Shown: positions 27,747 to 45,484, counted from the first letter of the stretch. The stretch is DNA of 64,000 nucleotides from Fidelibacterota bacterium (GCA_021736185.1 JAIPGJ010000001.1:141-64140), one strand, 5' to 3'. Numbers and translations are program-made. The notes: generated by a model from the letters alone, not told the origin.

Positions 27747-28892
27747 ATGGGAACACTACTCAAAACCGATGAAGCCCTGAACAATGCCTACTCAGAAGAG
27801 TTGGCTGCAAGAGGCGTGTCGCGTAGAGATTTTATTAAATTCTGTACTGCGATTACAGCTGCAATGGGATTGCCAGTTGGAATGGTGGCTAAAGTTGCCG
27901 AAACGGTAGCCAATCCAAAACGTCCACCTGTAATCTGGCTTCATTTCCAAGAATGTACAGGTTGCACCGAGTCACTACTCCGTGCTACGCATCCAACTGT
28001 TGAGAACCTTGTTTTGGACTTGATCTCGTTGGATTATTCTGAAACGCTTTGCGCCGCTGCTGGCCATCAAGTGGAAGAAGCATTGCACAACTCTGTTGAA
28101 GCCAATGCAGGCAAATTTATTCTTGTCATCGAAGGATCGATTCCAACAGCTGAAAATGGTATCTACTGTAAGATCGGCGGTCGCACTGCCATGGAGATCA
28201 TGGCAGATATTGGTCCCAAGGCAGCTGCTGTAGTTGCTATCGGCTCATGCGCAAGCTGGGGCGGAGTACAGTCTTCCGGTCCTAATCCTACTGGAGCCAA
28301 GGGCATTCATGAAGTATTTACGGATAAGCCTGTGATCAACCTTCCAGGTTGTCCAGCCAGTCCCTACAATCTATTGCAGACCGTTCTCTACTACCTGACA
28401 TTAGGTAAACTGCCTCAACTGGACGAGAAGAACCGCCCCATGCTGGCCTATGGCAAGCTTATCCATGAGAACTGTGAACGTCGTCCACATTTCGATGCTG
28501 GTCGTTTTGCTCAGCAGTTTGGTGATGCCGGTCATCGCCAGGGCTGGTGCCTGTATAAACTTGGTTGTAAAGGTCCCGAAACCTACGCGAACTGTCCATC
28601 GATCCTCTACGGGGATGTGGGGTCAGGCGCATGGCCAGTGGGTACTGGACATCCATGTTTTGGGTGTTCGGAAGAAGGTGTCGGATTCACCAAAGCAATT
28701 CACGAACAAGCCGATGTATTTACGGTGCGGCCACCTTCCTTATATCCTGAGGTCGACACACCTCAAGGTAATGGGTTGGGAGTTGGCGCTGCCGCAGTGG
28801 TAGGCGCTGCCGCCGGTATTGCTATCGGAGCTTCCGTAGCTACGGCGAAGAAGACAAAGGAATCCGATCAATCCTCATCAACTGAATCCTAA
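27747..28892 (+). CDS. hybO: [NiFe] hydrogenase small subunit, Tat-exported, with C-terminal membrane anchor (group 1, Hyb type)
   Basis: SRRDFIKFC Tat motif. PVIWLHFQECTGCTESLL proximal-cluster motif. C-terminal hydrophobic anchor GVGAAAVVGAAAGIAIGA. Confidence 0.9.
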   Translation: MGTLLKTDEALNNAYSEELAARGVSRRDFIKFCTAITAAMGLPVGMVAKVAETVANPKRPPVIWLHFQECTGCTESLLRATHPTVENLVLDLISLDYSETLCAAAGHQVEEALHNSVEANAGKFILVIEGSIPTAENGIYCKIGGRTAMEIMADIGPKAAAVVAIGSCASWGGVQSSGPNPTGAKGIHEVFTDKPVINLPGCPASPYNLLQTVLYYLTLGKLPQLDEKNRPMLAYGKLIHENCERRPHFDAGRFAQQFGDAGHRQGWCLYKLGCKGPETYANCPSILYGDVGSGAWPVGTGHPCFGCSEEGVGFTKAIHEQADVFTVRPPSLYPEVDTPQGNGLGVGAAAVVGAAAGIAIGASVATAKKTKESDQSSSTES

Positions 28893-28903
28893 GAGGCGTC
28901 ATT

Positions 28904-29956
28904 ATGCAAGTTGATAGAAGAGAATTTTTCAAAATCCTGTCCGCGGGTGCGGTTACGATGTCCAGCATCAGTACCGTTCAAGCTCGTAGCGTAGCGACAC
29001 TTCCGCCAGAGGCTGAAGGTGTGCTTTACGATGCCACGCTTTGCATCGGGTGTAAATCATGTGAAGTGGCCTGTAAACGTAATAACAGCATGCCCATGGA
29101 CTTTGGTTCCTATGAGGAAAGCCTCGGTGTGGAGGGTGTCTGGGATGCTCCCAAAAACCTGAATGCGAAGACATTAAATAAGATTCAGGTGTATCGAAAT
29201 GGGAAAGCAACTACGAGAAATCAGGAAAAAGATGGCTTTTCATTCATTCGTCGGGCCTGTATGCACTGTGCCGATCCGGACTGTGCTTCTGCTTGTCCAA
29301 CAACGGCCTTTACAAAAGACCCCAAGACCGGGATTGTCAGCTGGGAAAAGGATAACTGCTGTGGCTGTCGCTACTGCCAGATAGCCTGTCCATATGACAT
29401 CCCCAAGTTTGAATACGATAAAGCTATTCCACTGGTCCATAAATGCGAAATGTGCTCCCATGTACAGGCTGAGGGTGGCATACCCGGATGCGCAGAATTC
29501 TGTCCAACCGGAGCCACGATCCATGGGAAGCTTACTGATATCCTGGAAGAGGCTAAGCGTCGTATTGCCCTGCAGGAAGGGGATGAATATCCCTATCCTA
29601 CCGCGTCGTTGAAAGGCGTATATCGCCGTACCAGCGATAAAGATGGATCCTTCATTCAGGACGAAGCGCAGGATAACTCCTTTATCCAGCGTAGGCCTGT
29701 GGCCAAGTACATTGACTATATCTATGGTGAGCAAGAGAGTGGAGGGGCTCAGTACTTGATTCTCTCTGCAGTACCTTTCGAGAAATTGGGACTGCCCCGT
29801 CGCGGATTTACCTCGTCGGCTGTTCGCTCGGAAAATATCTCACACACGCTCTACAAGGGAATGATTGCACCGATCGCCCTCTTGGGTGGTCTGGTCTTCG
29901 CAGCTCATCGTAGTTCCAAATCACTAGCTGACGGCGAGGAGGTGGGTGATGAGTGA
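28904..29956 (+). CDS. hybA: Hydrogenase-2-type 4x[4Fe-4S] ferredoxin subunit (HybA/NrfC-like), Tat-exported
   Basis: RREFFK Tat motif. Four Cys clusters: CIGCKSCEVAC, CMHCADPDCASACP, CCGCRYCQIACP, CEMC...CAEFCP. C-terminal TM helix. Confidence 0.85.
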   Translation: MQVDRREFFKILSAGAVTMSSISTVQARSVATLPPEAEGVLYDATLCIGCKSCEVACKRNNSMPMDFGSYEESLGVEGVWDAPKNLNAKTLNKIQVYRNGKATTRNQEKDGFSFIRRACMHCADPDCASACPTTAFTKDPKTGIVSWEKDNCCGCRYCQIACPYDIPKFEYDKAIPLVHKCEMCSHVQAEGGIPGCAEFCPTGATIHGKLTDILEEAKRRIALQEGDEYPYPTASLKGVYRRTSDKDGSFIQDEAQDNSFIQRRPVAKYIDYIYGEQESGGAQYLILSAVPFEKLGLPRRGFTSSAVRSENISHTLYKGMIAPIALLGGLVFAAHRSSKSLADGEEVGDE

Positions 29957-31088
29957 TACTTATGCGCCATTAGGTGGTAAATTGTGGACAAAGCCCTTTT
30001 CCATTCTATTCATGCTGGCAGTGGTAGGCCTGGTCCTCATAGGCTACCGTTTTCTCTTTGGCTTGGGGGCGGTAACCAATCTCAATGACGGATATCCATG
30101 GGGTCTCTGGATTGTCTATGACATTCTGGTAGCCACTGGATTGGCTTGCGGTGGTTATGCCATGGCTATTCTTGTCTATGCCTTCAATCGCGGCCAGTAT
30201 CATCCGCTGATCAGACCGGCCTTGCTGGCTAGTGTCTTTGGATACACGCTTGCTGCAGGTGCCATTGTCATAGATACGGGGCGTTACTGGAACCTCATTA
30301 ACATATTCCTGCCGCAGACAAGCAATATTGGAAGTTCCTGGATGGTAGAGGTGGCCATTTCCATCTCAGCCTACATCGTCGTCCTGTGGTTGGAACTTTC
30401 CCCTGTGATGCTTGAGAAGTGGAACAAGACCAAACTTCGTCGGCGTGTACACCGTATCATGTTTGTGGTGGTGGCCTTCGGGATGCTTTTCCCGACGCTG
30501 CACCAGAGTTCTTTGGGTGGTCTGATGATTGTCGCTGGTGACAAACTGTCTCCCCTGTGGCAAACCAACTGGCTTCCGGCACTCTTCCTGCTTTCAGCAC
30601 TCTCCATGGGATTTGCTGTGGTGGTTTTCGAGGCAATCTTTTCAGCCACGGTGCTGAAGCGACCCTATGAACAGTCCATGTTGAGTAAGTTAGCCGGGAC
30701 CATTCCTTGGATACTCGGGTTTTATCTGATCTTGCGCTGGACCACCTTGCTGATCAACGGTGGTCTTAGCGACTGGGCACTGAATGCTAAAGGCATCATG
30801 TTCATTATTGAAAATCTGCTGTTCATTTATCCCTTCATTGTCTTGTTGAGCGAGGCGAACAGAGGGAAACTGACGCAGTTGTTTTATGCTTCCATCTCAA
30901 TCCTGCTGGCAGGCGCAGTGTATCGATTTGATGCCTTCCTGGTAGGATTCGAACCAGGTGGCGGTTATGTCTATTTTCCAGCTGTTGCTGAGATCCTGAT
31001 CACTGTTGGTATCATCTCCATCGAGCTGGTAGCTTACTTATTCTTTGTTAAACGTTTCCCGGTTTTACCGGTGCTAAAAGATGCCTAG
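29949..31088 (+). CDS. hybB: NrfD/PsrC-family integral membrane quinone-interacting subunit
   Basis: About 10 TM helices. Its position between hybA and the large subunit matches the hyb operon order. ATG 29949 follows GGAGG. The ORF track starts at GTG 29946. Confidence 0.85.
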   Translation: MSDTYAPLGGKLWTKPFSILFMLAVVGLVLIGYRFLFGLGAVTNLNDGYPWGLWIVYDILVATGLACGGYAMAILVYAFNRGQYHPLIRPALLASVFGYTLAAGAIVIDTGRYWNLINIFLPQTSNIGSSWMVEVAISISAYIVVLWLELSPVMLEKWNKTKLRRRVHRIMFVVVAFGMLFPTLHQSSLGGLMIVAGDKLSPLWQTNWLPALFLLSALSMGFAVVVFEAIFSATVLKRPYEQSMLSKLAGTIPWILGFYLILRWTTLLINGGLSDWALNAKGIMFIIENLLFIYPFIVLLSEANRGKLTQLFYASISILLAGAVYRFDAFLVGFEPGGGYVYFPAVAEILITVGIISIELVAYLFFVKRFPVLPVLKDA

Positions 31089-31100
31089 GGAGGATTTCTA

Positions 31101-32804
31101 ATGGCTAAACGTATTGTTGTAGATCCCGTGACCAGAATCGAAGGACACCTGCGCATCGATTGCGAGGTGAAGAATGGAAAAATCTCAAATGCCTGGTCAT
31201 CGGGACAGATGTGGCGTGGAATCGAGACCATCTTGGAAGGTCGTGACCCCAGGGACGCCTGGGTTTTTACCCAGCGTATCTGCGGTGTTTGTACCACGGT
31301 ACATGCCATAACATCAGTCAGAGCTGTAGAGAATGCCCTGGCCATGGAAGTGCCGTTGAACGCTCAGTATATTCGAAATATGATCATTGCGGCTCATGGT
31401 ATCCACGATCATATCGTTCATTTTTATCATCTGTCTGCCCTCGACTGGGTAGATGTTGTCTCTGCCCTTTCAGCAGATCCTGCCAAGGCTTCCAAACTGG
31501 CGGAGAGCCTTTCTGATTGGCCACATAATGGGGTTCAGGAATTCAAGGCTGTTCAAGATAAGTTGAAAGCCTTTGTGGGTTCAGGACAGCTTGGCATTTT
31601 TGCCAACGGCTACTGGGGACACCCAGCCATGAAGCTGTCACCTGAGGTAAACCTGCTGGCTGCTGCACATTATCTCCAGGCTTTTGAGATTCAGCGCTTG
31701 GCCAACCAGATTACCACCATCCTGGGATCAAAGACCCCCCATATTCAGAATCTGGCTGTAGGTGGCGTTGCCAATCCCATCAATCCTGACAGTGAGGATG
31801 CTCTTAACATGGAGCGTCTGGCAGCGATCAAGACTTTGATGGATAAGCTGGAACAGTTCATTTATCAGGCTTATTTTGTTGATGTTACAGCGATTGGTGG
31901 ATTCTATGCAGACTGGACTCAATATGGATCAGGTGTCATGAACTACTTGTCCGTTCCGGATTTCCCGACTGATACGAAGGGAACTCAATTCGGCATGCCC
32001 GGTGGATATATTCCCAACGGTGATGTGGGTGCCTTCAAGCCCATCAACTCATTCAACGACGCCATGTTTGAAAAAGGCGTTAAAGAAAGCATCAAGCACT
32101 CCTGGTATGATGGTGATCATAATCGACATCCATACAAGGGGGAGACTATTCCCAAGTATACGGATTGGGACGATGACGGTGCCTACAGCTGGGTAAAATC
32201 ACCTACATTCAATGATCAGCCTGCTCAGGTTGGTCCCTTGGCCAATGTGCTAGGTATGTATGCCGCAGGTCATAAAACCACCCAAAAAGTGGCGAATCTT
32301 GCGCTGGAGCGTGTGTCGGCGATTGCCGGGACAAAGGTTGGAATCGGTGCCTTGCATTCTACAATAGGTCGCCATGCAGCACGCTGTATTCGTACGGCTG
32401 TTCTTTATGAAGAGCTTCAAAAGAACTACGATCTTCTCATTAATAATATAGCAGGTGGCGATATGACCACATTTAACCCACCTGTATTTCCCAAGGGTGA
32501 GCAGACGGGCTTCGGTTTTCATGAAGCACCTCGTGGTACCTTGAGTCACTGGGTGGTCATCAATAATGGTAAGATCAAGAACTACCAGTGCGTGGTTCCT
32601 TCGACTTGGAACGCCGGTCCTCGAAACGGCGATGACAAGCTGGGACCATACGAGGCATCCTTGGTGGGTAACCCCATCGCGGATGAAGAGAAGCCTCTGG
32701 AGTTATTGCGGACGGTGCATTCCTTTGATCCATGCCTGGCATGCGCCATCCATCTCCATGACAACGATCGCAAGGACATTGTGAAAGTCAATGTCCTTCC
32801 CTGA
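31101..32804 (+). CDS. hybC: [NiFe] hydrogenase large subunit
   Basis: N-terminal RIEGHLRID...RICGVCTTVH (CxxC Ni ligands) and C-terminal DPCLACAIH (DPCxxCxxH) motifs. Cys, not Sec, at the C-terminal motif. Confidence 0.9.
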   Translation: MAKRIVVDPVTRIEGHLRIDCEVKNGKISNAWSSGQMWRGIETILEGRDPRDAWVFTQRICGVCTTVHAITSVRAVENALAMEVPLNAQYIRNMIIAAHGIHDHIVHFYHLSALDWVDVVSALSADPAKASKLAESLSDWPHNGVQEFKAVQDKLKAFVGSGQLGIFANGYWGHPAMKLSPEVNLLAAAHYLQAFEIQRLANQITTILGSKTPHIQNLAVGGVANPINPDSEDALNMERLAAIKTLMDKLEQFIYQAYFVDVTAIGGFYADWTQYGSGVMNYLSVPDFPTDTKGTQFGMPGGYIPNGDVGAFKPINSFNDAMFEKGVKESIKHSWYDGDHNRHPYKGETIPKYTDWDDDGAYSWVKSPTFNDQPAQVGPLANVLGMYAAGHKTTQKVANLALERVSAIAGTKVGIGALHSTIGRHAARCIRTAVLYEELQKNYDLLINNIAGGDMTTFNPPVFPKGEQTGFGFHEAPRGTLSHWVVINNGKIKNYQCVVPSTWNAGPRNGDDKLGPYEASLVGNPIADEEKPLELLRTVHSFDPCLACAIHLHDNDRKDIVKVNVLP

Positions 32805-33312
32805 CGTTGTTGTACTAGGACTGGGTAACCTGTTACTGCAGGATGAGGGCGTGGGAATCCACGCCCTCCGCATTCTGCAGGAGAATTACCTGTTTACCCC
32901 CCAAATTGAACTCGTTGATGGGGGAACCTCCGGCCTGGATCTTTTACAATTTTTCAGGCCTGAATCAAAGATGATCATGCTGGATGCCATGCTCTTTGAG
33001 CAATCAGCAGGCAGTATCGGTCGCGTGGAAAATGAGGATATTCACGCTCGCCTGAATACCAAAACATCTGTGCATCACTTGGGGTTGAGCGACCTGCTTG
33101 CTATCGCCAAACTGACGGATGTCACTCCCCGGGAAATCGTCCTTTTCGGAGTTCAGCCTGAAAGTATGGAACTGAAAGTAGAGCTCACAAAGACGGTGAA
33201 TGATGCCATTCCAAAGCTTATGGAGTATGTGATTCAGCAGCTAGGGGAGTGGGATGTGAAAACATCCACCTTGAAAAATGAGGGAAAGGGAACCACTCAG
33301 GCAGACTGGTAG
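32791..33312 (+). CDS. hybD: Hydrogenase maturation endopeptidase (HybD/HyaD family)
   Basis: VVVLGLGNLLLQDEGVGIHA...ELVDGGTSGLDLL family signature. Overlaps the hybC stop. Confidence 0.85.
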   Translation: MSFPDVVVLGLGNLLLQDEGVGIHALRILQENYLFTPQIELVDGGTSGLDLLQFFRPESKMIMLDAMLFEQSAGSIGRVENEDIHARLNTKTSVHHLGLSDLLAIAKLTDVTPREIVLFGVQPESMELKVELTKTVNDAIPKLMEYVIQQLGEWDVKTSTLKNEGKGTTQADW

Positions 33313-33352
33313 TGTGCGTTTTTTCAGTCGGTTCGGCTTGAATTTCGCCGTG

Positions 33353-33733
33353 CTATTTCATCACCCCGGCATGGGTTAACATGTAGGCGACGGCATCCTC
33401 AATATCCTTTTCAGAACACTGAGAACACATCCCCATAACAGGGAGCTCGCCATATTTACCGCGGTAGCCATGAACAGTATTGTACACGAGTTGGTCAAAC
33501 CCCTTCTCAGCACTCTCCTGCCAACGGCTATTCTGATCTAAGCGATGTGCACCCTCGATGGCGCCAGTATGACAGAGCATGCAATTATCCTTGTAAATTT
33601 TCTCACCATTAACCAGGTCAGCATGGATATCATGCAAATTAAGTTCGCTTTTTGAGCTACAGCTGAAGATTGCTGCAATCATGAGTAAACTGGATGCTAA
33701 AAAAAGTGATCGATACATGGATTCCCCTCTCAC
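33353..33733 (-). CDS. Monoheme class-I c-type cytochrome
   Basis: Signal peptide. A single CMLCH motif with a downstream Met. Likely start MYRSLFL (33718). Confidence 0.75.
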   Translation of the reverse strand: MRGESMYRSLFLASSLLMIAAIFSCSSKSELNLHDIHADLVNGEKIYKDNCMLCHTGAIEGAHRLDQNSRWQESAEKGFDQLVYNTVHGYRGKYGELPVMGMCSQCSEKDIEDAVAYMLTHAGVMK

Positions 33734-33919
33734 AACTCATAAAGTGCAATGAATGCACTGAAATTTAAAATATCAAGGGTATTTTGAAAGCCATAGTATA
33801 TCAAAAAATGAGGAGCTAATTCATTTAAGCCATTTCAAAATGTTTTATGTTCTTTATCTTAAAATCATGGAGCTTAGAAATCGAATCTGTCTGGATGGTA
33901 GATATGAGTCCCTGTTGGC

Positions 33920-34348
33920 TTGAATTTTGAAGGCATTCCAACGATGAATCTTTTCAAGAATGTCAGTTTGTTTCGTTTGTTGCTGCAGCTTATTGCTATC
34001 CACTCCTTCCTCGTTGGTCTGGGGCTGATCGTCCTTCCCTTTGGAGTTCTTTCCTGGTTTGGATTTACCGTAGACCCATATCGCTTCTTCTCCGCCCAGG
34101 GAGGCGTTTTCCACGTTGTGATGAGCATTGGCTATTTTCTTGCTGCACGAAATCCACGGGGGGAGAAGAATCTCATTATTTTCATCATCCTGGCAAAATG
34201 GATCGCTTTCTTTTTTCTGGCATTTTATTTTCTGTTTTCAGAAATGGTTCCAGTCATAGCCTTTTCCGCTGTGAGTGATGGCTTGATGGGCTTGATCGTC
34301 ATGATGTTTTTCCTCGAATTATACACTCAGGAGGAAATGGATGGCTGA
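33920..34348 (+). CDS. Small hypothetical membrane protein
   Basis: Three or four TM helices. TTG start in the ORF track (ATG at 33944 is an alternative). No motif recognised. Confidence 0.4.
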   Translation: MNFEGIPTMNLFKNVSLFRLLLQLIAIHSFLVGLGLIVLPFGVLSWFGFTVDPYRFFSAQGGVFHVVMSIGYFLAARNPRGEKNLIIFIILAKWIAFFFLAFYFLFSEMVPVIAFSAVSDGLMGLIVMMFFLELYTQEEMDG

Positions 34349-35879
34349 CAAGCCCCTTCCCAGAATAGTTATCACTGGGGCATCAGGGTTTATTGGTAGC
34401 CACTTTGTAGAAACCTACAAAGATGAATTTCAAATATATGCCCTGGCCCGTCGGAGTCAGCAGGAAGTGGGTATCCCCAGACATAAAAACATCAACTGGA
34501 TCCTGGTGGACATAGCCGATCGTGATCAGGTTCAAAGGGTGATGAGTGAGATCGAGACCAGCGGTGGAGCAGATTATTTTATTCACCTCGCAGCTTATTT
34601 TGACTTCTCTAACGAAGCGAATGCTGAGTATGAACGGACCAACGTACTGGGATCAAAAGTCATTTTTGAGGCGGCTTCAGGTCTGGGACTCAAACGATTT
34701 ATTTTTGCAAGTTCACTGGTGGTTTCAGAATTTCCACGACAGGGGGAAAGATTAAACGAACAGAGTCCACTGGACGCCGATTTTCCCTATGCAGTTACCA
34801 AAAAAGCGGGCGAAGCCATGGCCAAAGAGTGGTCTGAATCGTATCCCTGCACGGTGGTTCGCTTTGCAGCAGTGTATAGTGACTGGTGCGAATATGGTCC
34901 CCTCTATAAATTTTTAGACACCTGGTCATCCAGTTCATGGAAATCCAGAATTCTAGGTGGCCAAGGGGAATCATCAGTACCCTATATTCACATTGTCTGT
35001 TTGGTGCGGATGTTAAAAACGATCCTCGACAAAACGGAACAACTGAAACCATTCGATGTGCTCCTTGCCAGTCCCGATGAAAGTACGAGTCATCAGGAAT
35101 TATTCGACTTAAGCACCCGATTTGTATTTGGTGAAAAACGAAGCGCTGTTCACATGCCCGTTTCTCTGGCTCGGCTGGGTGTTTACCTCATGGATTTGAG
35201 CGGAAAACTCATCGGTCATCGTCCCTTCGAACGGCCCTGGATGATGAAATACATAGACGAACGTATGGATGTTGATGCTTCTTATACCAGGGATGAACTG
35301 GATTGGCAGGTGATTCCACGATATCGGCCCGAGCGCAGAATTCTACATGTGATTGAGCATATGAAAACTTTTCCCATAGAGTGGCATTCTAAGAACGTTC
35401 TGGCTCTGTATAAAACACCTGACAGGCCAAATCTGGAAATTTCTGAGGCACTTGCCCATCAGGAGGCTCAGATTCTCAGTGCCCTGCAAGTTCAAATTAT
35501 GAATGTGGATGAACCCTGGCGATATCCATCATATAAGCAAATGGAACCGGAAAAATTGGCCTGGTATCTTAGCATTGTGTATAATTTGCTCAAGGTTGCC
35601 GTACGGACAGGTGACCGATTATCTCTGGCAAATTATGCACGCTTTATCGCTAGCATACGTATCCATGAAGGTTTTAAATTGCCTGAAGTCGTTGATGTTT
35701 ATCAAACCCTCTCTGAGTTGGTCATCCAGCACCTGCTCGAATTTGATGCTGTCAAACATCTTGAGCAACGCATTCGCGACGATATTGACCTGACCATTCA
35801 GATGGCGGTGGATGAAATTGAAGACGCCTATGATAATGCTCATGCTCCAGCGCCATATATTCGATTTCATCAACGCTAG
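34341..35879 (+). CDS. Two-domain protein: N-terminal extended-SDR NAD-dependent epimerase/dehydratase fold plus a roughly 180-aa C-terminal helical domain of unknown function
   Basis: ITGASGFIGSHF Rossmann motif. YAVTK (Yx3K) catalytic pair. The C-terminal domain is shared only with the next gene. Confidence 0.75.
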   Translation: MADKPLPRIVITGASGFIGSHFVETYKDEFQIYALARRSQQEVGIPRHKNINWILVDIADRDQVQRVMSEIETSGGADYFIHLAAYFDFSNEANAEYERTNVLGSKVIFEAASGLGLKRFIFASSLVVSEFPRQGERLNEQSPLDADFPYAVTKKAGEAMAKEWSESYPCTVVRFAAVYSDWCEYGPLYKFLDTWSSSSWKSRILGGQGESSVPYIHIVCLVRMLKTILDKTEQLKPFDVLLASPDESTSHQELFDLSTRFVFGEKRSAVHMPVSLARLGVYLMDLSGKLIGHRPFERPWMMKYIDERMDVDASYTRDELDWQVIPRYRPERRILHVIEHMKTFPIEWHSKNVLALYKTPDRPNLEISEALAHQEAQILSALQVQIMNVDEPWRYPSYKQMEPEKLAWYLSIVYNLLKVAVRTGDRLSLANYARFIASIRIHEGFKLPEVVDVYQTLSELVIQHLLEFDAVKHLEQRIRDDIDLTIQMAVDEIEDAYDNAHAPAPYIRFHQR

Positions 35880-35926
35880 GCCGGTTATTCGCATTTGATT
35901 CTAAGGATCAAAGCTGGATATATAAA

Positions 35927-37444
35927 ATGGGACATCCGCAGACAAATAGAACGGTCCTCATTACCGGTGCCTCGGGATTTGTCGGTCGGCATCTTGTAAA
36001 ATATCTGTGCTCTGAGCATAAGGTCATCGCCTTTGCCCGGCGAACTCAAAAGGAAGTCGGTCTGGAACCACATCCCAATCTTGAGTGGGTTTTGGTAGAT
36101 ATCACTGATTCGAAACAATTGAAAAAAGCCTTTCTTAAGGCGACTACTTCACACCCCATTGATTTTATTTTTCATCTGGCTGCCTATTATGATTTTGGGG
36201 AGCAGATTTATTCAGATACCTATGAGAAAACCAATATTGAGGCAACTTATAACTTATTAGAATTGGCCAGAGCGGCTCATGTCCAACGATTTGTGTTTAC
36301 CAGTTCCATGGTTGCCAGCAATTTCCCCCTACCCGGCGATCTGGTTAATGAGCGCAACCTGCCAGATGCTGAATATCCTTATGCCATTACCAAACGTCAG
36401 GGGGAAAAACTGGTCCAGGAATTCTCCCATTATTTCCCCTGCTCGGTGGTGCGGCTGGCTGCAGTTTGCAGCGATTGGTGTGAGTATGAACCGCTTTATC
36501 ACTTTTTGAAAATATGGTTATCTGATCGATGGGATGCCCGTATTATCCCGGGTAAAGGAATGATGGCCATTCCCTATATCCATGTTTGCTGTATCATTTC
36601 ACTTTTCGTCCAGATCATGGAAAAATCTACCGAATTGAAGGATTATGATGTATTTCTGGCCAGTTCTGATCAACCCGTATCACTGGTTGAGTTATTTAGA
36701 TTTGCCACTCGTCATTATTATGGTGAGGAGCGACACCCTGTTTTTATCCCCGTTTTCCTGGCCAGGCTAGGTGTGTTTTTCCGCAATATCAGGGGCAAAC
36801 TGATGGGGCAGCCTCCGTTTGAAAAGTTATGGATGCTGGACTATACGGATAAAGCATTTCCTACTGATTCATCTTATACCAGAGCAACGCTCGATTGGCA
36901 ACCGAAAGCGCGGCACCAAATATCAAGACGCCTCCTTCATCTTATTGAAAATTTGAAAGCCAGACCAGAGGAATGGCATCGCAAAAACATTGATCGATTG
37001 CACAGATTTTCCAGAAGTCGACCTTCCCTCGCGCTAGCCGAAGAAATGATCAAGTTGCATGAGACCTTGGTGGAGACTATCACTTCCCACATTATGCAGC
37101 CTGAAAACGCAGAGCAGTTGAAGTTTTATCATTCCATGGAGGCTGATGAGCTCAAGTGGTATATAAGCGTTGTTTTTAATAATCTACTAACCTCTGTACG
37201 TCATGGGGACAGATCGATCATGATCGTCTTTGCCCACGATCTTGCCAACCGGCGCATGCAGGAGGATGTGAGCCTGGAAGAATTATGTGAAGTACTATAT
37301 ATCACTCGTGATGTCATCACAGAAAGTTTGTACAACAATCCCAAGCTCCACAATATGAAACTGCTTGTCCATGATTACATCACCCTGGCCATTCAACTGG
37401 CCATCGATGAAATCAAAGATATTTATGAAAATATCCCCCTCTAG
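35927..37444 (+). CDS. Paralog of 34341..35879 (SDR epimerase fold plus the same C-terminal domain)
   Basis: ITGASGFVGRHLV, YAITK, and conserved CSDWCEYxPLY and L.WY.S.V.N.L..VR.GDR motifs. Co-linear with the upstream gene over the full length. Confidence 0.75.
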   Translation: MGHPQTNRTVLITGASGFVGRHLVKYLCSEHKVIAFARRTQKEVGLEPHPNLEWVLVDITDSKQLKKAFLKATTSHPIDFIFHLAAYYDFGEQIYSDTYEKTNIEATYNLLELARAAHVQRFVFTSSMVASNFPLPGDLVNERNLPDAEYPYAITKRQGEKLVQEFSHYFPCSVVRLAAVCSDWCEYEPLYHFLKIWLSDRWDARIIPGKGMMAIPYIHVCCIISLFVQIMEKSTELKDYDVFLASSDQPVSLVELFRFATRHYYGEERHPVFIPVFLARLGVFFRNIRGKLMGQPPFEKLWMLDYTDKAFPTDSSYTRATLDWQPKARHQISRRLLHLIENLKARPEEWHRKNIDRLHRFSRSRPSLALAEEMIKLHETLVETITSHIMQPENAEQLKFYHSMEADELKWYISVVFNNLLTSVRHGDRSIMIVFAHDLANRRMQEDVSLEELCEVLYITRDVITESLYNNPKLHNMKLLVHDYITLAIQLAIDEIKDIYENIPL

Positions 37445-37451
37445 GAAAACG

Positions 37452-37982
37452 CTAAGCAGTCAGCATCGAGAGCTCGTTTTGACAGGTCTGGCAAAACATA
37501 TCTGACTTTTGATCCATTTCTTCTACATAGGTGGTTGAGACCATGACGCAGCCAGGCTTTAGGCAGTGTTTCAGTCCAAACGTGTGACCGAGCTCATGGA
37601 CGATACACTTGATGATACGATCCGAAAATATTTGTGGATCACTGGCGAGACCATATCGTCTATTCTCTAAACGATGCCCTGAGACCAGGGCCACGGATCC
37701 ACCCAGGTAGGCCTGTCCAAATATGTAACTGAGTACGGGTATAAATAAATCCAAGTCAGTGACGCCGACGATTTTATCATCTTCACCTGCCAAAGGGAGC
37801 AACTTTTGTATGATTTCATTGGCATTATACTGAGATCTCACCGGATTGAAGAAGGGGGTCAAGTCCAGATGTTGACCGCTCAATCTGGTTTCCATCTTGA
37901 AGCGATTGCTGAGCACAGAAAGCATTGTTTCCATCGTAGAAACGCTGGAAAACTGTAGAGGAATGATCCTGATCAGGGGCAT
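37452..37982 (-). CDS. Archaemetzincin-like zinc metallopeptidase (M54)
   Basis: HELGHTFGLKHCLKPGCVM-x16-CQTC reproduces the archaemetzincin signature HExxHxxGx3Cx4CxMx17CxxC. Confidence 0.7.
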   Translation of the reverse strand: MPLIRIIPLQFSSVSTMETMLSVLSNRFKMETRLSGQHLDLTPFFNPVRSQYNANEIIQKLLPLAGEDDKIVGVTDLDLFIPVLSYIFGQAYLGGSVALVSGHRLENRRYGLASDPQIFSDRIIKCIVHELGHTFGLKHCLKPGCVMVSTTYVEEMDQKSDMFCQTCQNELSMLTA

Positions 37983-38002
37983 GAATCTAAGCCTGATCTA
38001 GA

Positions 38003-39343
38003 CTATTTTGGTTTCTCTATTTTATACTTTTTAATTTTACTGTAAAGGGTTACCCGGTCAACCCCCAGAGCTTTGGCCGCGCGTGAGATATTCCAATCAT
38101 ATTTAGTAAGTATTGCCTCAATGTGATGTTGTTCCATATCCTGGATGGACTCCCAAGTGGGTTTGGACATCTGGTGTTCGAAGGGGAGATCTTTGAGTTG
38201 CACCGTATCACCGGTTCCGATGACAATGGCTCGCTCAATGAGATTTTCAAGTTCACGTACGTTCCCAGGGAAAGCATAATTGTTCAAGGCTTTGGCTGCT
38301 CGTTTACCGATGTAGCGCGTTCCCTTGTTCATCTGGTCAGCATAGAGTTTAACAAAGTGTTCGGAGAGGAGTTTAATATCCTCTGGTCGTTCCCGTAGTG
38401 GCGGTATTTCAATTGAGAATACATTTAATCTATAATACAAATCCTCTCGAAACTCTCCAGCTTTGACCATGGTCTGCAAGTCCCGGTTGGTAGCGCAGAT
38501 CACTCGAAAGTCAGATTGGAGTTCACGGTTCCCGCCAACCCGGGTAAAGCGTTTTGATTCCAATACGCGCAATAATTCTATTTGCATCTTCATGGAGATA
38601 GTAGAAATCTCGTCCAGAAAAAGAGTTGCCCCATCAGCCATTTCAAATTTGCCTTTTCGCGCATATTGAGCACCGGTAAAAGCACCTCGTTCATGACCGA
38701 ACAGCTCGCTTTCCATGAGACTTTCAGCAATGGCGCCGCAATGCACAGTTACCATGGGAAAGAAACGTCTCGGCGAATTCATATGAATAGCTTTGGCGAT
38801 GAGTTCTTTACCCGTACCACTTTCGCCATGAATGATCACTGTTGAATCAGTTTCAGCCACAATTCTGACCTGCTCGAGGACTTTGAGAATACCCTCGCTT
38901 TGACCGATGATGTATTCAACATTGACCAGGCTTTTAATCCGATCCTGAAGCGAGAGGTTTTCACGGCTCAATTGAATGGATTTGCTCGCATTCCGTATGA
39001 TATGTGTGACTGCATCTGGATCGAATGGTTTGCATACATAATCGTAGGCTCCATCTTTCAAAGCTTGTACCGCAGAATCCACGGAAGCAAAAGCGGTCAT
39101 AATAATGACGATGGTATCTTCATTGATGGCTTTAATTCGCCGGTTGAGCTCAAGTCCGTCCATTCCAGGGAGTTTGATATCGATCAGGACGATGTGAAAG
39201 TGGAATGCTTCAATCTTTTTCAGGGCAACTTTGGCATCTTCAGCTGTGTCGACATCATAACCATCCTCGAGAAACCAATTGGATAGTGAATCCCTGACAG
39301 ATAGCTCGTCATCGACTACCAATATGGAAAGATTATTGTCCAT
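38003..39343 (-). CDS. Sigma54-dependent response regulator (NtrC family)
   Basis: Receiver domain (ILVVDDE...D). AAA+ core with GESGTGKE Walker A and the GAFTGA sigma54-contact motif (ERGAFTGAQ). C-terminal Fis-type HTH. ATG 39343 follows GGGAGG. Confidence 0.9.
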   Translation of the reverse strand: MDNNLSILVVDDELSVRDSLSNWFLEDGYDVDTAEDAKVALKKIEAFHFHIVLIDIKLPGMDGLELNRRIKAINEDTIVIIMTAFASVDSAVQALKDGAYDYVCKPFDPDAVTHIIRNASKSIQLSRENLSLQDRIKSLVNVEYIIGQSEGILKVLEQVRIVAETDSTVIIHGESGTGKELIAKAIHMNSPRRFFPMVTVHCGAIAESLMESELFGHERGAFTGAQYARKGKFEMADGATLFLDEISTISMKMQIELLRVLESKRFTRVGGNRELQSDFRVICATNRDLQTMVKAGEFREDLYYRLNVFSIEIPPLRERPEDIKLLSEHFVKLYADQMNKGTRYIGKRAAKALNNYAFPGNVRELENLIERAIVIGTGDTVQLKDLPFEHQMSKPTWESIQDMEQHHIEAILTKYDWNISRAAKALGVDRVTLYSKIKKYKIEKPK

Positions 39344-41009
39344 CCTCAAGCCTCCCAACACTAAGTTTAAATATAAATTTCATTGAGGTTCCAACTCCTG
39401 GAGTTGAATCAACAGCCACCCTGGCCTGATGTTGTTCCAAAATCCCATACGTGACTGCCAGTCCAAGGCCAATTCCAGACATTTCTTTTTTGCTGGAGAA
39501 AAAGGGCTCAAAAATATGCTCCAAATCAGATTCTGGAATACCAATGCCATTGTCTTTAATTTCAATAATAACATGCTCCATATCCGGATTAGAGCTGCGG
39601 TAGGTCACCAGACCCTCCGAACCTGGACGAACAGCTTCCAGGGCATTGGTAAGTGTGGCCAGACAGGCCTGAATGATTTGGTTGCCATTGGCCATGATTT
39701 TATCTCTGCTGGCTGAAAAATCAGTAACGAGTCTCACATCAGAGATTTGGAAACTATGCTGAATAAGCTTTTCAGTTTCCATAAGCACCTCATTAAGGTG
39801 AATTTCCTCAAATTTTTCGCTACCATCCCTGGAAAAATTTAGCAGACCTTTTACAATATTACCACAGCGGGTAGTTTCAGACTGAATCATATCAAGATGC
39901 TTTAAGACAGCGGTTTTCTTCTCATCCGTGAAATCACTGGTCTGAAGTATTCTGGAAACCAGCTTGGCATAGGTCAGAACTCCTGCCAAGGGGTTATTAA
40001 TTTCATGTGCTACCGAGGACGAAAGGCGACCCAGCGAGGCGAGTCTTTCGATTTGATATATTTCATTCTGAGTTCTGGCGATATCCTCCGATTTGCTCCG
40101 GACCTTACTTTCCAGCTCACTGGACCATTCATGTAACTCACGATTACTTTCATTAATGGATTCCAGCATGGTATTCAGTGCCAGACCCACCTGGTGAATA
40201 TCAATCAGGTCATTGGGTTGTATATCCACTCGAACCGATAAATTACCGGCAGAAACGGCCCGGCTGGCTTCCACAATCCGTTGGAGGGGCTGATTGATGC
40301 GGCGCTGGACAAAATACAACAAGGTGCCGACCAGGAGGATCAGAAAGAGCACCACAATGCTGAAGTATTCATACAAAACTTTGTTCAATGCCGAGTCCAC
40401 CTCAGTCAAGGGCAATTCAATTTCCATAAATCCCAGTACTTCGGAGGGGGAAGATGTTTGATGACAGGAAATCGAACCGCAGGAGGGGGCAGACATGATG
40501 GGTGAGAGGACGATCATATTCCGGCCGTCCTTAAGCTCCACATTGTATACGCAAGTAGCCGGCATGCCCCATTGAGCTGGATCTACTTCCGCATGGCAAT
40601 GGGAGCAGGGGAGCAGGGGCTCTTCGCCCCGGGCCTTACTTGAGGCATCCTGAGTGTGATGTTTGATCTCACCGCGATTATTATATATCCTAATCGCGCT
40701 GATACCAGGCACCTCCAACACCTCGTTGATGGCGCTGGCAAGTTCAGCATGATCCTCACTGATCATACTGCTGCGGATCGACTTATCAATGACCGTAGCC
40801 ATTCGTTTTCCAAAGCGGGTAGTGACACTTTCCAGATAATTGTTTGACATTGAAAAGATGAGCCAGGCTAAAAATGCGAAGAGAATCACAGACATGCTTA
40901 CCAGCAGGCTAAGGAGATGTCCATATAATGATTTTGGTTGAAACTTTTTTTTCATAAATGAGATGTGGTGTTTTTGCATTGGTGGAACCTGATTGAGCTT
41001 AGAGTTCAT
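39333..41009 (-). CDS. Sensor histidine kinase with a periplasmic heme-c-binding (CxxCH) sensor domain
   Basis: TM1, a roughly 170-aa periplasmic domain containing CSHCH plus CGSISCH, TM2, HAMP, HisKA (SSSVAHEINNPLAGV), HATPase_c (DNGIGIPE...GIGLGL). Start chosen at MNSKLNQ (GAGG-preceded ATG 41009). The ORF track extends to 41102. Confidence 0.85.
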   Translation of the reverse strand: MNSKLNQVPPMQKHHISFMKKKFQPKSLYGHLLSLLVSMSVILFAFLAWLIFSMSNNYLESVTTRFGKRMATVIDKSIRSSMISEDHAELASAINEVLEVPGISAIRIYNNRGEIKHHTQDASSKARGEEPLLPCSHCHAEVDPAQWGMPATCVYNVELKDGRNMIVLSPIMSAPSCGSISCHQTSSPSEVLGFMEIELPLTEVDSALNKVLYEYFSIVVLFLILLVGTLLYFVQRRINQPLQRIVEASRAVSAGNLSVRVDIQPNDLIDIHQVGLALNTMLESINESNRELHEWSSELESKVRSKSEDIARTQNEIYQIERLASLGRLSSSVAHEINNPLAGVLTYAKLVSRILQTSDFTDEKKTAVLKHLDMIQSETTRCGNIVKGLLNFSRDGSEKFEEIHLNEVLMETEKLIQHSFQISDVRLVTDFSASRDKIMANGNQIIQACLATLTNALEAVRPGSEGLVTYRSSNPDMEHVIIEIKDNGIGIPESDLEHIFEPFFSSKKEMSGIGLGLAVTYGILEQHQARVAVDSTPGVGTSMKFIFKLSVGRLEDGQ

Positions 41010-41076
41010 GTCCCCCTCAATAAAAAAGTGACTTCGTAAATAATCGCGTGAGTTAATTATGCATAATACATGCCAG

Positions 41077-41784
41077 TCAACAGACATAAGCCAGGCCATC
41101 ACTAATGCCTAGCAGGTATTTTGAGAATGCGCTTTTATTCAATTTGGATCGCCGAAGGAGTGTGTGCGGCGTAGGTTCATCTGACCTATGGAGGAGTTTG
41201 CTGAACCTATCCAGATCTTCCTCAGCCAGTTTTAGGTACTCATCTCGCCTGAGATATTCAAGTTCAAGTGAGTTTTCATCCACTTCCAATTCTACAAACC
41301 AGAGTTCTTCCTCAGGGCTCATATATAAATAAGTGTCCTGAATTTGATTTGAGCTGAACAGGGGATTGGACTGAAGAATTTGTCCAGATACGGGTGTGCG
41401 CAGGTAGATAATATCATCTTCCAATTGCAGCCAACTGAAACATTGTTTTTGAAGGAGTGCGGTGTTGACCTTGGGTGTAATTATTTTTTGAACTGAGGAA
41501 AAATATTGCCACAAAAATGCATCGATTCCCAGGCGAATTTTACCTTTCCCCGTTCTCTTGATCCAGAAATGCCGATGAGTGAATTGGAGCCCCGGTGTAA
41601 ACTGAATCACTGATACTTCAGGGTTTTTAATATCGATGGTGGTGGTTTCAGCTTTTATTCCAGGTCGTCGACACCCCCGCATCATTTCCCTGTGAAAATC
41701 ACATAAGTCGCAATTCTGTTTGAGGGGACAAAGTTGATATTCAACGGATTCGGCATCCATCCATATACATTTTTGCGATTCCAT
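41077..41784 (-). CDS. Soluble GcvH-fold protein with an N-terminal Cys-rich region
   Basis: HFWIKRTGKGKIRLGIDAF...IITPKV...IYLRTPVSGQILQSN aligns with the H-protein core (HEW..VGITD(F/Y)A..LP.VG..ES.K..IYAPVSGEV..N..L). No Lys at the lipoylation position. N-terminal CIW...C..C..C..C cluster. No TM helix. Confidence 0.6.
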   Translation of the reverse strand: MESQKCIWMDAESVEYQLCPLKQNCDLCDFHREMMRGCRRPGIKAETTTIDIKNPEVSVIQFTPGLQFTHRHFWIKRTGKGKIRLGIDAFLWQYFSSVQKIITPKVNTALLQKQCFSWLQLEDDIIYLRTPVSGQILQSNPLFSSNQIQDTYLYMSPEEELWFVELEVDENSLELEYLRRDEYLKLAEEDLDRFSKLLHRSDEPTPHTLLRRSKLNKSAFSKYLLGISDGLAYVC

Positions 41785-41873
41785 CTTTGATCCACCTATC
41801 TATCATTCAGCAGGGTAGGGAGGGGTAGTCCTAAAAGGACCCCCCTCCAAAAAGTCCCACTGACTCACTATTG

Positions 41874-44674: not shown

Positions 44675-44725
44675 AATATTTTATCCTTACAGGGTCTAGA
44701 GTAATATTTGTAGGTAGATGGATCA

Positions 44726-45436: not shown

Positions 45437-45468
45437 AATGAACCTCCTTTTTAGTTCACCCCTATTAG

Positions 45469-45484
45469 TTCAAGATAGGTGCCA
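45469..45484 (-). promoter_or_regulatory. Candidate sigma54 promoter (minus strand: TGGCAC-N5-TTGAA) about 45 nt upstream of the GcvH-like/NrfCD operon
   Basis: The reverse complement of 45469-45484 reads CTGGCACctatcTTGAAC. The -24 GG is present. The -12 reads GA instead of GC. Geometry relative to the RBS and ATG is appropriate, and an NtrC-family activator is encoded at the 3' end of the operon. Confidence 0.3.

Follow-up and report, generated by a model that had tools for sequence, protein, structure and literature searches.

Hyb-type uptake hydrogenases play a central part in the cycling of H2 in sediments, oxygen-minimum zones, and guts. In Firmicutes, hydrogenase genes are controlled by Rex. 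In ERG26/ERG28, a 3beta-HSD-like SDR is tethered by a small 4-TM scaffold; VKOR is a quinone-dependent thiol oxidoreductase; and in NmrA-type sensors the catalytic Tyr is no longer present. RsbR-type globins have been reported to bind fatty acids (PMC8717448), and the structural matches of the solved non-haem globin MabR-N comprise phycobiliproteins, pXO1-118-like non-haem globins, and haem globin sensors (PMC11617747).

Here we analyse a 64,000-nt stretch of DNA from a Fidelibacterota bacterium (GCA_021736185.1, JAIPGJ010000001.1:141-64140; "the window"), in which a gene for a small 4-TM membrane protein and two genes for SDR-globin fusion proteins follow a hydrogenase operon. We are highly confident in the description given below of gene structure, architecture, fold, conserved residues, domain exclusivity, partner gene, hydrogenase synteny, and fusions, and, together with it, in the view that the 4-TM protein and the SDR-globin protein constitute a conserved module accompanying H2-metabolising redox complexes, chiefly Hyb-type [NiFe]-hydrogenase operons. 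Neither protein is named or mentioned in the literature searched, and the distinctive part of each is without a Pfam family; searching it for hydrogenase clusters that contain SDR or epimerase genes, and for SDR-globin or SDR-VKOR fusions, yielded nothing relevant.

The gene pair

Gene A (34341..35879, plus strand) encodes a 512-aa protein (MCF7825603.1, publicly labelled 'NAD(P)-dependent oxidoreductase'), and gene B (35927..37444, plus strand) encodes a 505-aa protein (MCF7825604.1). Both ORFs were confirmed at these positions, and, as the original prediction had it, the two adjacent genes share the same architecture: BLASTP aligns the proteins with 202/493 identities (41%, E 1e-148) in an alignment that extends through the C-terminal part, and over just the C-terminal 180 aa, identity is about 31–32%. 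Described originally as 'tandem duplicated', the genes are indeed adjacent paralogues but do not stem from a recent duplication. In particular, B is 56% identical to a single-copy protein of Lentisphaeria (L007), exceeding its identity to A, and an NJ tree groups A with the Hyb-associated subclade and places B in another subclade, with the second copy of locus L089, L007, and L001. Since B is nearer to single-copy genes of other phyla than to A, a recent tandem duplication was rejected, and A and B are old paralogues from different subclades. Independent paired copies also occur in L005 and L089, and one family protein (P0132) is a head-to-tail double; these paired forms suggest that A and B probably form a heterodimer here.

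The SDR part

The extended-SDR part of A comprises aa 1–356 (34341..35408, plus strand), with a PF01370 match, the catalytic motifs, and clade-specific helices at 330–356; that of B comprises ~aa 1–358 on the same strand, with a PF01370 match and the family-invariant residues. Scores for PF01370 (Epimerase) are 101 bits for A and 98 bits for B (Pfam gathering cutoff, 20.9), and the coverage of both proteins by Pfam and NCBIfam is limited to ~aa 9–240. Both proteins contain TGASGF(I/V)G and Y150-x3-K154. In an alignment of 38 family members, over which conservation was scored, residues T12, G13, A14, S15, G16, and G19, together with N101, S124, Y150, and K154, are unchanged in 38/38 sequences, as are the substrate-side residues DWCEY (181–185), H217, and PFERPWM; B keeps every family-invariant residue. 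The motifs and the invariant Asn, Ser, Tyr, and Lys bear out the original reading of a catalytically intact extended SDR. The AF2 full-length model of A (pLDDT 89.7) has the two-lobed Rossmann and substrate-domain fold of an extended SDR, and Foldseek matches the SDR part to RmlB/GalE with E values of 4e-18 to 1e-15, TMt of 0.74–0.80, and ~20% identity.

None of the NCBIfam equivalogs for GalE, RmlB, HpnA, LegB, or OleD is reached (best scores, 56–61 bits; cutoffs, 262–580). Similarity of the SDR to Pfam 3Beta_HSD amounts to 47–63 bits, and Pfam NmrA falls below threshold (23.2 and 26.1 bits; cutoff, 27). Directly after strand beta2, ARR occupies the place where an acidic residue would be expected, suggesting that the SDR prefers NADP(H). 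Among relatives without a globin domain, those nearest to the family are SDR-VKOR-SPW membrane fusions from Bradyrhizobium and Sphingomonas (L025 and L026; E 3e-37), which align over aa 7–354 with 26% identity. The SDR clade's own C-terminal extension, common to globin-less relatives, reaches ~aa 356; the added domain is thus ~140 aa in length (~360–500) and not, as first proposed, 180 aa.

The C-terminal domain

The C-terminal domain of A (~aa 360–500; 35418..35840, plus strand) is predicted to be a non-haem globin-fold domain from its AF2 model, Foldseek, and the absence of a conserved ligand, and that of B (~aa 362–503; nt ~37010–37435, plus strand) is predicted to be globin-like. The AF2 model of the A domain has a pLDDT of 90.6, and all 50 best Foldseek PDB matches belong to the globin superfamily (TMt 0.57–0.71, probability 1.00, E only ~1e-2); sensor globins such as BpeGReg (TMt 0.69, rmsd 2.8) and pXO1-118 (TMt 0.71) are among them. 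The domain confidently models as a globin fold, closest to sensor globins, and as a highly divergent member of the superfamily, an assignment made from the AF2 model with Foldseek as the single comparison method.

The original prediction held this domain to be conserved, helical, and unassignable. Its C-terminal motif (L.WY..V.N.L..VR.GDR ... DEI.D.Y.N) was confirmed as one conserved throughout the family, and the sequence libraries still give no assignment: Pfam and NCBIfam contain nothing at threshold for aa 340–512 of A or B, and a comparison of the domain profile with PDB sequences returned nothing meaningful. What changes is that a known fold, that of the globin superfamily, is now predicted, alongside sub-threshold similarity to RsbRD_N (PF14361); this goes halfway towards the match to a known domain that would have refuted the original prediction. 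RsbRD_N is the sole recurrent non-SDR Pfam family, found in 9/75 members with a best E of 8.7e-4 (P0008 has an E of 0.046 and 14.9 bits, against a cutoff of 24.3), and the weak matches span nearly the whole Pfam model; neither A nor B matches it, and no member is reported above the gathering threshold. Rsbr_N (PF08678) gives an E of 0.11, and when hhalign was used to align the domain profile with the RsbRA N-domain (2bnl, its sequence verified) the probability came to 0.2%, which leaves no ground for claiming a sequence-level tie to Rsbr_N.

With neither His nor Cys conserved in the domain, the haem-globin and phycobiliprotein readings were both rejected. Specifically, among the 38 sequences, no His in aa 360–500 is conserved above 55% (H479 is present in 21/38 and is Arg in A), no bilin-attachment Cys is conserved (C451 is present in 19/38 and is Val in A), and a conserved Met ligand is absent; the conserved residues of the domain are mostly Arg, Asp, Glu, Tyr, and Trp.

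A profile search established the distribution of the fusion: the domain occurs solely behind this SDR, in 274 clusters among 1.84 billion representatives, all of them full-length fusions or fragments. An impression of extreme rarity, gained from a word-index search with the C-terminal 182 aa (10 fragments), was overturned by the full-length and exhaustive profile searches. Rare members carry fusions to HydA, Rieske, REC (P0177), or PAS (P0199). A role for the tail as a substrate-delivery or regulatory module, as originally suggested, is plausible.

The 4-TM partner

Upstream of gene A lies a gene for a small 4-TM membrane protein (33944..34348, plus strand; 134 aa from the ATG at 33944, with a longer ORF from the TTG at 33920). 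At the junction (34330..34348, plus strand), a GGAGG Shine-Dalgarno sequence (34330–34334) precedes the gene A ATG (34341), and the TGA of the 4-TM gene occupies 34346–34348, such that the two genes, as read from the sequence, overlap by 8 nt. The 4-TM gene is predicted to be translationally coupled to gene A, and equivalent 4-nt or 8-nt overlaps join the 4-TM and SDR-globin genes in L082, L086, L088, and L089.

The 4-TM protein is 100% identical to Ca. Marinimicrobia 'hypothetical protein K9M55_00130' and has 109 homologues, none named or with a Pfam domain; it shows no sequence similarity to ERG28 or any Pfam family. Its four hydrophobic segments bear a conserved His (AiHSF), QGGVFH, a Lys, and an Asp. 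The 4-TM gene adjoins the family gene in 17/31 loci, and in a strict screen it was found in 14/30 family loci and in 0/57 control SDR loci (p = 3e-8). The 4-TM protein is the usual conserved partner of the SDR-globin family.

Genomic context

The region 27747..33312 (plus strand) is a Hyb-type (hydrogenase-2-like) [NiFe]-hydrogenase operon with a full HybO-A-B-C-D set, all on the plus strand: hybO (27747–28892; small subunit, E 7e-155, 516 bits vs an equivalog cutoff of 659), hybA (28904–29956; NCBIfam HybA, 386 bits, cutoff 263), hybB (29946–31088; NCBIfam HybB, 464 bits, cutoff 450), hybC (31101–32804; hydrogenase-2 large subunit, E 1.7e-262, 872 bits vs an equivalog cutoff of 969), and hybD (32791–33312; HybD-type protease). 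For the large and small subunits the hydrogenase-2 models score best, yet close below equivalog level. The original prediction contained neither the hydrogenase nor the 4-TM context. A sigma70 promoter and terminator scan of 33200–38100 gave results at chance level.

A complete HybOABC(D) set lies within 8 kb of the family gene in 12/31 family loci (the window and 11 others, with several gene orders) and in 0/57 control SDR loci (p = 2e-6). The Hyb-linked loci come from at least six lineages (Marinimicrobia, Krumholzibacteriia, Acidobacteriota, a Myxococcota-like delta-proteobacterium, Desulfobacula, and unclassified); Ignavibacteria (L006) has a partial hyb set without a detectable large subunit, and ~60% of family loci are without a hydrogenase nearby. 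Other neighbours include a HydCBA [FeFe]-hydrogenase and Rnf in L005, a sensory [FeFe]-hydrogenase-histidine kinase in L085, and multihaem cytochrome/HmcB/HmcC genes in L001. Membrane acyltransferase genes are located directly downstream in two lineages: TMEM164 (L002, L082, and L086) and Acyl_transf_3/HGSNAT (L084). Glycan, sterol, glycosyltransferase, and polysaccharide genes show no recurrence near family loci. The sugar-nucleotide or sterol role originally put forward is not borne out: no equivalog cutoff is reached, glycan or sterol neighbours are absent, and the context is one of hydrogenases, a 4-TM partner, and quinone-type membrane complexes.

Proposed function and alternatives

The module is most likely a membrane-docked NADP(H) oxidoreductase or sensor that has a hydrophobic quinone or lipid ligand and acts in hydrogen metabolism. 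In our proposed mechanism, the 4-TM protein would dock the SDR-globin protein (here, probably the A/B heterodimer) at the cytoplasmic face of the membrane; the SDR would use NADP(H) to reduce or oxidise a hydrophobic membrane-borne compound, possibly a carbonyl or quinone-type compound; the globin domain may hold a hydrophobic ligand (substrate tail or effector), gating or reporting catalysis in the manner of haem-less sensor globins; and the module would couple the pyridine-nucleotide pool to the quinone/lipid surroundings of the hydrogenase, with a presumed effect on the hydrogenase. A hydrophobic or quinone substrate is proposed because of the SDR-VKOR-SPW relatives, the downstream membrane acyltransferases, and the fatty-acid binding by RsbR-type globins. 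To this overall mechanism, in which a membrane-docked NADP(H) module links pyridine nucleotides to the quinone/lipid milieu of the hydrogenase, we assign a probability of roughly 0.35.

A possible, if doubtful, alternative is a pure redox sensor or regulator, in which the SDR would bind NAD(P)H/NAD(P)+ without turnover (cf. NmrA, HSCARG, and CtBP), and the globin domain would relay the state to kinases, response regulators, or other partners, tuning hydrogenase or Rnf expression or activity. A globin tail of a type otherwise known from signalling proteins and the REC and PAS fusions fit such a role, but the retention of the catalytic and substrate-side residues (N101, S124, Y150, K154, DWCEY, H217, and PFERPWM) in 38/38 sequences does not, the catalytic Tyr being the residue lost in NmrA-type sensors. 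The neighbours point both ways: a sensor kinase and a REC protein in L005, the [FeFe]-hydrogenase-like histidine kinase together with a REC-HK in L085, sigma54 response regulators in the window, L008, L010, L011, and L089, and an MCP in L009 speak for a regulator, as does the company of several differing redox complexes, which suits a regulator more than one dedicated enzyme, whereas coupling to a membrane protein gene at the ends of structural hyb operons is unusual for one. A scan of the window for sigma54 promoters found 42 sites (38 expected), none of which precedes hybO or the 4-TM gene; the best of them, and the sole good one, serves the neighbouring minus-strand operon and not the hyb/SDR unit. 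Within the window there is thus no support for control of this unit by the sigma54 two-component system next to it.

It is unlikely that the module is a maturation or assembly factor for Hyb-type [NiFe]-hydrogenase, providing, for example, NADPH reducing power, a ligand precursor, or membrane insertion of HybA/HybB. The position of the family gene is that of an accessory gene (after the HybD protease gene in 8 loci, beside HypE in L023, and, as a pair, between hybD and hypA-hypB-hypF-hypC-hypD-hypE in L088), but the family also occurs near [FeFe]-hydrogenases, whose maturation is a pathway unrelated to that of [NiFe]-hydrogenases, near Rnf and kinases, and fused to HydA, and most of its loci have no hydrogenase in the vicinity. 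Moreover, A, B, and the 4-TM protein have no Pfam or NCBIfam match to the Hyb/Hyp accessory families (HybE/F/G and HypA-F), and well-studied Hyb systems, such as that of E. coli, mature without an SDR-globin module.

We regard as decidedly improbable a further reading, in which the 4-TM and SDR-globin proteins are a previously unknown flavin-free electron input/output module that couples hydrogenases to the NADP(H) pool. On this view, a redox-active hydrophobic cofactor (quinone or similar) would sit in the haem-less globin, and the 4-TM protein would use its conserved His pair to bind haem b or quinone. As suggested by the HydA and Rieske fusions, hydride transfer involving NADP(H) would then connect with the Fe-S chains of two kinds of hydrogenase, Hyb-type [NiFe] and HydA-type [FeFe]. 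It is very improbable that the protein is simply a conventional nucleotide-sugar epimerase or dehydratase whose helical tail serves oligomerisation and which lies near the hydrogenase by chance: although the N-terminal 330 aa are best matched by GalE, RmlB, and relatives (Pfam, PDB-sequence, and Foldseek), and although public labels read 'nucleoside-diphosphate-sugar epimerase' or 'NAD(P)-dependent oxidoreductase', identity is only ~20%, the NCBIfam equivalogs are far off (56 vs 262–365 bits), glycosyltransferase and polysaccharide genes are not recurrent nearby, the Hyb and 4-TM synteny is highly non-random against control SDR loci, the closest relatives are VKOR membrane fusions, and ARR suggests NADP(H) rather than the tightly bound NAD+ of epimerases.

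Hyb operons had been regarded as well catalogued, and yet the two-gene module recurs inside them in Marinimicrobia, Acidobacteriota, Krumholzibacteriia, Desulfobacterota, and other mostly uncultured lineages. If the module modulates or extends hydrogenase function (through quinone/lipid chemistry, redox sensing, or NADP coupling), it would be a missing component of models of H2 metabolism for these phyla, and its globin domain would be the first of the sensor type joined to a metabolic enzyme instead of a signalling output. The SDR-globin protein and the 4-TM protein are concrete, cloneable targets for biochemistry.

Comparison with known systems

Non-haem sensor globins (the RsbR N-domain, 2bnl; pXO1-118, 3pmd; and the MabR N-domain) and the SDR-globin domain, whose fold is predicted, both lack a proximal His or other conserved haem or bilin ligand, and the structural matches reported for MabR-N (PMC11617747) have the same make-up as the Foldseek matches of the SDR-globin domain. 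The sensor globins are N-terminal in signalling proteins (STAS proteins, kinase inhibitors, and transcription factors), whereas the SDR-globin domain invariably follows an intact enzyme at the C-terminal end; with respect to RsbRD_N and Rsbr_N, it is under the Pfam threshold and has no hhalign similarity to RsbRA-N. Flavohaemoglobins and globin-coupled sensors also combine a globin fold and an NAD(P)H-binding or signalling domain in one chain, but bind haem via a proximal His and have an FAD reductase or a GGDEF or MCP output, whereas the SDR-globin protein has neither haem ligand nor flavin domain. NmrA, HSCARG, and Rex are likewise Rossmann-fold dinucleotide binders tied to the regulation of redox metabolism; the SDR-globin protein, in contrast, keeps the catalytic Tyr and Lys, has a membrane partner, and contains no DNA-binding domain.

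The GalE/RmlB extended SDRs share TGxxGxxG, N-S-Y-K, and the two-lobed fold (TMt up to 0.80), and the SDR-globin protein differs from them by ARR after beta2, DWCEY/PFERPWM, the helical extension, the globin domain, the membrane partner, and the hydrogenase context. The SDR-VKOR-SPW fusions share the clade motifs HLAAYFD, FIFASS, F-x-RPWM, and P-x-x-W-x-x-N and are physically linked to a 4-helix-type membrane module; they have no globin domain and no DWCEY, carry a covalent VKOR instead of a separate His-, Lys-, and Asp-bearing 4-TM protein, and show no hydrogenase context in their loci (L025 and L026). ERG26/ERG28 offers a parallel to the pairing itself, namely an extended SDR with 3Beta_HSD similarity and a 4-TM protein of ~135 aa, which there serve sterol synthesis and here belong to bacterial hydrogenase operons.

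Genes A and B encode extended SDRs with an intact active site

Two adjacent plus-strand genes, A (34341-35879, 512 aa, MCF7825603.1) and B (35927-37444, 505 aa, MCF7825604.1), lie exactly where the original prediction placed them, and are publicly annotated only as 'NAD(P)-dependent oxidoreductase' in Candidatus Marinimicrobia records. The predicted common architecture is borne out by 41% identity over 493 aligned residues (E 1e-148), with similarity extending into the C-terminal part. In particular, Pfam identifies an extended-SDR 'Epimerase' domain at residues ~9-240 of A (101 bits) and B (98 bits), while the last ~170 residues have no assignment in Pfam or NCBIfam, and neither protein approaches any NCBIfam equivalog cutoff. 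Both proteins carry the motif TGASGF(I/V)G and residues N101, S124, Y150, and K154, all of which are invariant across an alignment of 38 family sequences (homologues having both parts), confirming that the SDR active site is intact, as predicted. The SDR part also has partial similarity to 3beta-HSD and fatty-acyl reductases. In the region where NAD-dependent extended SDRs have an acidic residue, the family has invariant A34, A36, and R37, and 33 of 38 sequences also have R38 (completing the ARR of residues 36-38); by established SDR coenzyme rules, the SDR probably prefers NADP(H).

The relationships of the two genes argue against a recent tandem duplication. Specifically, B shares more identity with the single-copy gene of a Lentisphaeria genome (L007; 56%) than with A (41%), and, in a neighbour-joining tree, A falls with the clade associated with hydrogenase-2-like [NiFe]-hydrogenase (Hyb), whereas B falls with L007, L001, and the second copy of L089, a related Marinimicrobia-like contig. 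Judged by sequence, A and B are old paralogues. Copies have also become paired independently elsewhere: L005 carries a divergent pair, and the metagenomic protein P0132 is a 1029-aa head-to-tail double SDR-globin whose halves are mutually closest relatives. This independent recurrence suggests that two copies may act together, for example as a dimer, and A and B may heterodimerise.

The C-terminal domain is a predicted haem-less globin confined to this SDR

An AlphaFold2 model of full-length A, computed with the 38-sequence alignment, has a pLDDT of 89.7, and a model of residues 325-512 alone, computed with 75 sequences, has an all-alpha tail with a pLDDT of 90.6. The 50 best Foldseek matches of the isolated domain in the PDB all belong to the globin superfamily, with modest E values (about 2e-2), and include phycocyanin/allophycocyanin subunits, cytoglobin, a Bordetella globin-coupled sensor (TMt 0.69, rmsd 2.8 Å), and the non-haem sensor globin pXO1-118 (TMt 0.71). 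At the sequence level, the only recurring non-SDR Pfam family is RsbRD_N (PF14361), matched by 9 of 75 members below the gathering threshold (best E 8.7e-4); in one member the match, also below threshold, spans nearly the whole Pfam model. Comparison of the domain with the RsbRA N-domain (2bnl) by hhalign gave no match, nor did a search of PDB sequences with a profile. The helical domain, which the original prediction could not assign, has no Pfam or NCBIfam assignment, but the structural models give it a haem-less globin fold.

The original division into ~330 residues of SDR and ~180 residues of added domain holds as a two-part layout with a shifted boundary. The nearest tail-less SDR relatives are 850-880-aa proteins of Bradyrhizobium sp. 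CCH5-F6 (L025, 584-3238) and a Sphingomonas MAG (L026, 1720-4275). Alignment of A with the Bradyrhizobium protein extends to residue 354 (E 3e-37, versus only 1e-12 for the best solved SDR), indicating that helices 330-356 are part of the SDR clade and that the added globin domain comprises residues ~360-500. A domain scan of the L025 protein reveals that an extended SDR of the family's clade shares the chain with a VKOR (vitamin K epoxide reductase) domain and with SPW repeats, an architecture that hints at quinone-type membrane modules as general partners of this SDR clade.

When 1.84 billion representative proteins were searched exhaustively with an HMM, the domain was recovered in just 274 clusters. 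Of the 150 clusters listed, 33 comprise the full SDR and globin, 104 are N-truncated fragments starting inside the SDR, and none has another upstream architecture; among the matches listed, the globin-fold tail is exclusive to this SDR. The full-length architecture is widespread (more than 120 proteins at at least 88% coverage), and its phylogenetic distribution comprises 22 species-level genomes, all MAGs, from many phyla, including Bacteroidota, KSB1, Ignavibacteria, Lentisphaeria, Krumholzibacteriia, Acidobacteriota, and Desulfobacterota. Rare metagenomic members (P0187, P0190, P0177, and P0199, read from metagenomic assemblies) are fused C-terminally to a complete HydA, Rieske, REC, or PAS domain, the HydA-type [FeFe]-hydrogenase fusion being 1104 aa long. 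Separately, P0127, P0084, and P0112 (about 648 aa) and P0217 and P0220 (N-terminal extensions) have 140-180 extra residues with no Pfam match. The C-terminal domain profile matches two stretches of P0127, whose extension may be a second globin-like repeat.

The family is associated with a membrane-protein partner and with hydrogenases

A gene for a 134-aa small membrane protein (33944-34348) lies directly 5' of A and is translationally coupled to it: the two reading frames share 8 nt, from the ATG of A to the TGA stop of the small gene, and a GGAGG is positioned 7 nt 5' of that ATG. The protein has four hydrophobic segments bearing a conserved His (AiHSF), QGGVFH, Lys, and Asp, and 109 homologues, all 'hypothetical' and none with a Pfam domain. 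Of 31 family loci, 17 also have the small-TM gene, some of them without a hydrogenase; in a stricter screen, it was present in 14 of 30 family loci versus 0 of 57 control loci of other SDR genes collected by the same scan (p = 3e-8).

The module formed by the small-TM and SDR-globin genes lies 3' of hybO-A-B-C-D (27747-33312), a complete operon for a Hyb-type [NiFe]-hydrogenase. Using neighbour clustering, tblastn, and precomputed Pfam, we found that 12 of 31 independent loci have a complete HybOABC(D) set no more than 8 kb from the family gene. These sets vary in orientation and come from distant lineages that include Marinimicrobia, Krumholzibacteriia, Acidobacteriota, a Myxococcota-like delta-proteobacterium, and Desulfobacula; none of the 57 control loci has one (p = 2e-6, or p = 3e-4 with species-representative genomes only). 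The commonest order is hybOABCD-smallTM-SDR, with genes that overlap or nearly abut; in L088 this order is followed directly by hypA-hypB-hypF-hypC-hypD-hypE, and in L023 the module and hybO are separated by an AIR-synthase-type (HypE-like) gene. An Ignavibacteria MAG (L006, 270-6729) has a partial, Hyb-like cluster in which genes for a protease, the small subunit, HybA, HybB, a membrane protein of the DsbD_2 family, the small-TM protein, and the SDR follow one another in that order, with no large-subunit gene detectable within the locus. A DsbD_2 protein also closes the hyp cluster of L088. In the window, a 126-aa mono-haem cytochrome c (33353-33733, minus strand; PF00034, E 2e-9) is encoded between hybD and the small-TM gene; none of the other family loci, including the closely related L089, yielded a counterpart.

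Further family genes lie directly 5' of a NuoE-like/NuoF-like/HydA [FeFe]-hydrogenase operon that adjoins Rnf, a sensor kinase, and a REC protein (L005), between Rnf clusters (L009), and beside a multihaem cytochrome/HmcB/HmcC set (L001). In L085 (4447-7657), a putative H2-sensing histidine kinase (683 aa, with Fer4, [FeFe]-hydrogenase large-subunit, FeS, and HisKA/HATPase domains) is followed by a REC-HisKA-HATPase protein, both directly 5' of the family member. The association with hydrogen-metabolising complexes is statistically strong, crosses phyla, and survives gene rearrangement. Membrane acyltransferase genes lie directly 3' of the SDR-globin gene in two lineages: an Acyl_transf_3/HGSNAT gene in L084 and, in one lineage, TMEM164-family (PF14808) genes with overlapping or abutting ends (L002, 7588-8295; L082, 9527-10243; L086, 9530-10228). 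Eukaryotic TMEM164 is a lipid acyltransferase.

A minus-strand operon (37452-45484) faces the module. It comprises genes for a GcvH-like protein (44726-45436), an HmcB-like 4Fe-4S protein (43805-44674), an HmcC/NrfD-like membrane protein (42559-43818), two further GcvH-like proteins (41874-42566 and 41077-41784), a histidine kinase, a sigma54 response regulator, and an archaemetzincin-family (M54) Zn protease (37452-37982; NCBIfam NF033823, 153 bits versus a cutoff of 145), an unusual pairing of an NrfD/Fe-S quinone module with three lipoyl-carrier-like proteins. The archaemetzincin gene is convergent with B and has the same position in L089, which keeps the entire operon. The window's best sigma54-promoter-like site, TGGCACCTATCTTGAA (45469-45484), lies ~33 nt 5' of the first gene of this operon; the scan of the window revealed none 5' of hyb or of the module. 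Elsewhere in the window is a very large plus-strand ORF (8289-13328, 1679 aa).

Proposed function and relation to known systems

Together, these features favour, with a probability of about 0.35, a membrane-docked oxidoreductase. The 4-TM protein would dock the SDR-globin protein at the membrane, the SDR would act as an NADP(H)-dependent oxidoreductase, and the globin domain would bind a hydrophobic ligand and gate or report catalysis, among the quinones and lipids that surround the hydrogenase. A quinone- or lipid-type ligand is suggested by the VKOR-fused relatives, the acyltransferase neighbours, the 3beta-HSD/fatty-acyl-reductase similarity, and the reported binding of fatty acid by RsbR-type globins (PMC8717448).

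The main alternative, a non-catalytic NAD(P)H sensor or regulator, would account for the fusions to REC and PAS and for the neighbouring kinases, but the invariant catalytic residues, the operon position of the module, and the lack of a sigma54 promoter before hyb or the module make it the less likely of the two. A dedicated role in [NiFe] maturation would explain where the gene lies, but it is at odds with the [FeFe], Rnf, and stand-alone contexts, and we consider it improbable. An ordinary sugar-nucleotide enzyme is contradicted by genomic context and equivalog scores and is very improbable.

SDR and globin folds are both already known. The enzyme-fused sensor-type globin, its partner protein, and its place in hydrogenase operons are undescribed in Pfam, NCBIfam, the non-haem globin survey, and targeted literature searches, and the module of small-TM and SDR-globin genes is a component of H2 metabolism in abundant uncultured lineages that has so far been overlooked and can be tested. 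The family domain has a structural match list like in make-up to that of the crystal structure of MabR-N, a bona fide non-haem sensor globin, in which phycobiliproteins are the top matches, followed by non-haem globins (RsbR, pXO1-118) and haem-containing globin sensors (PMC11617747).
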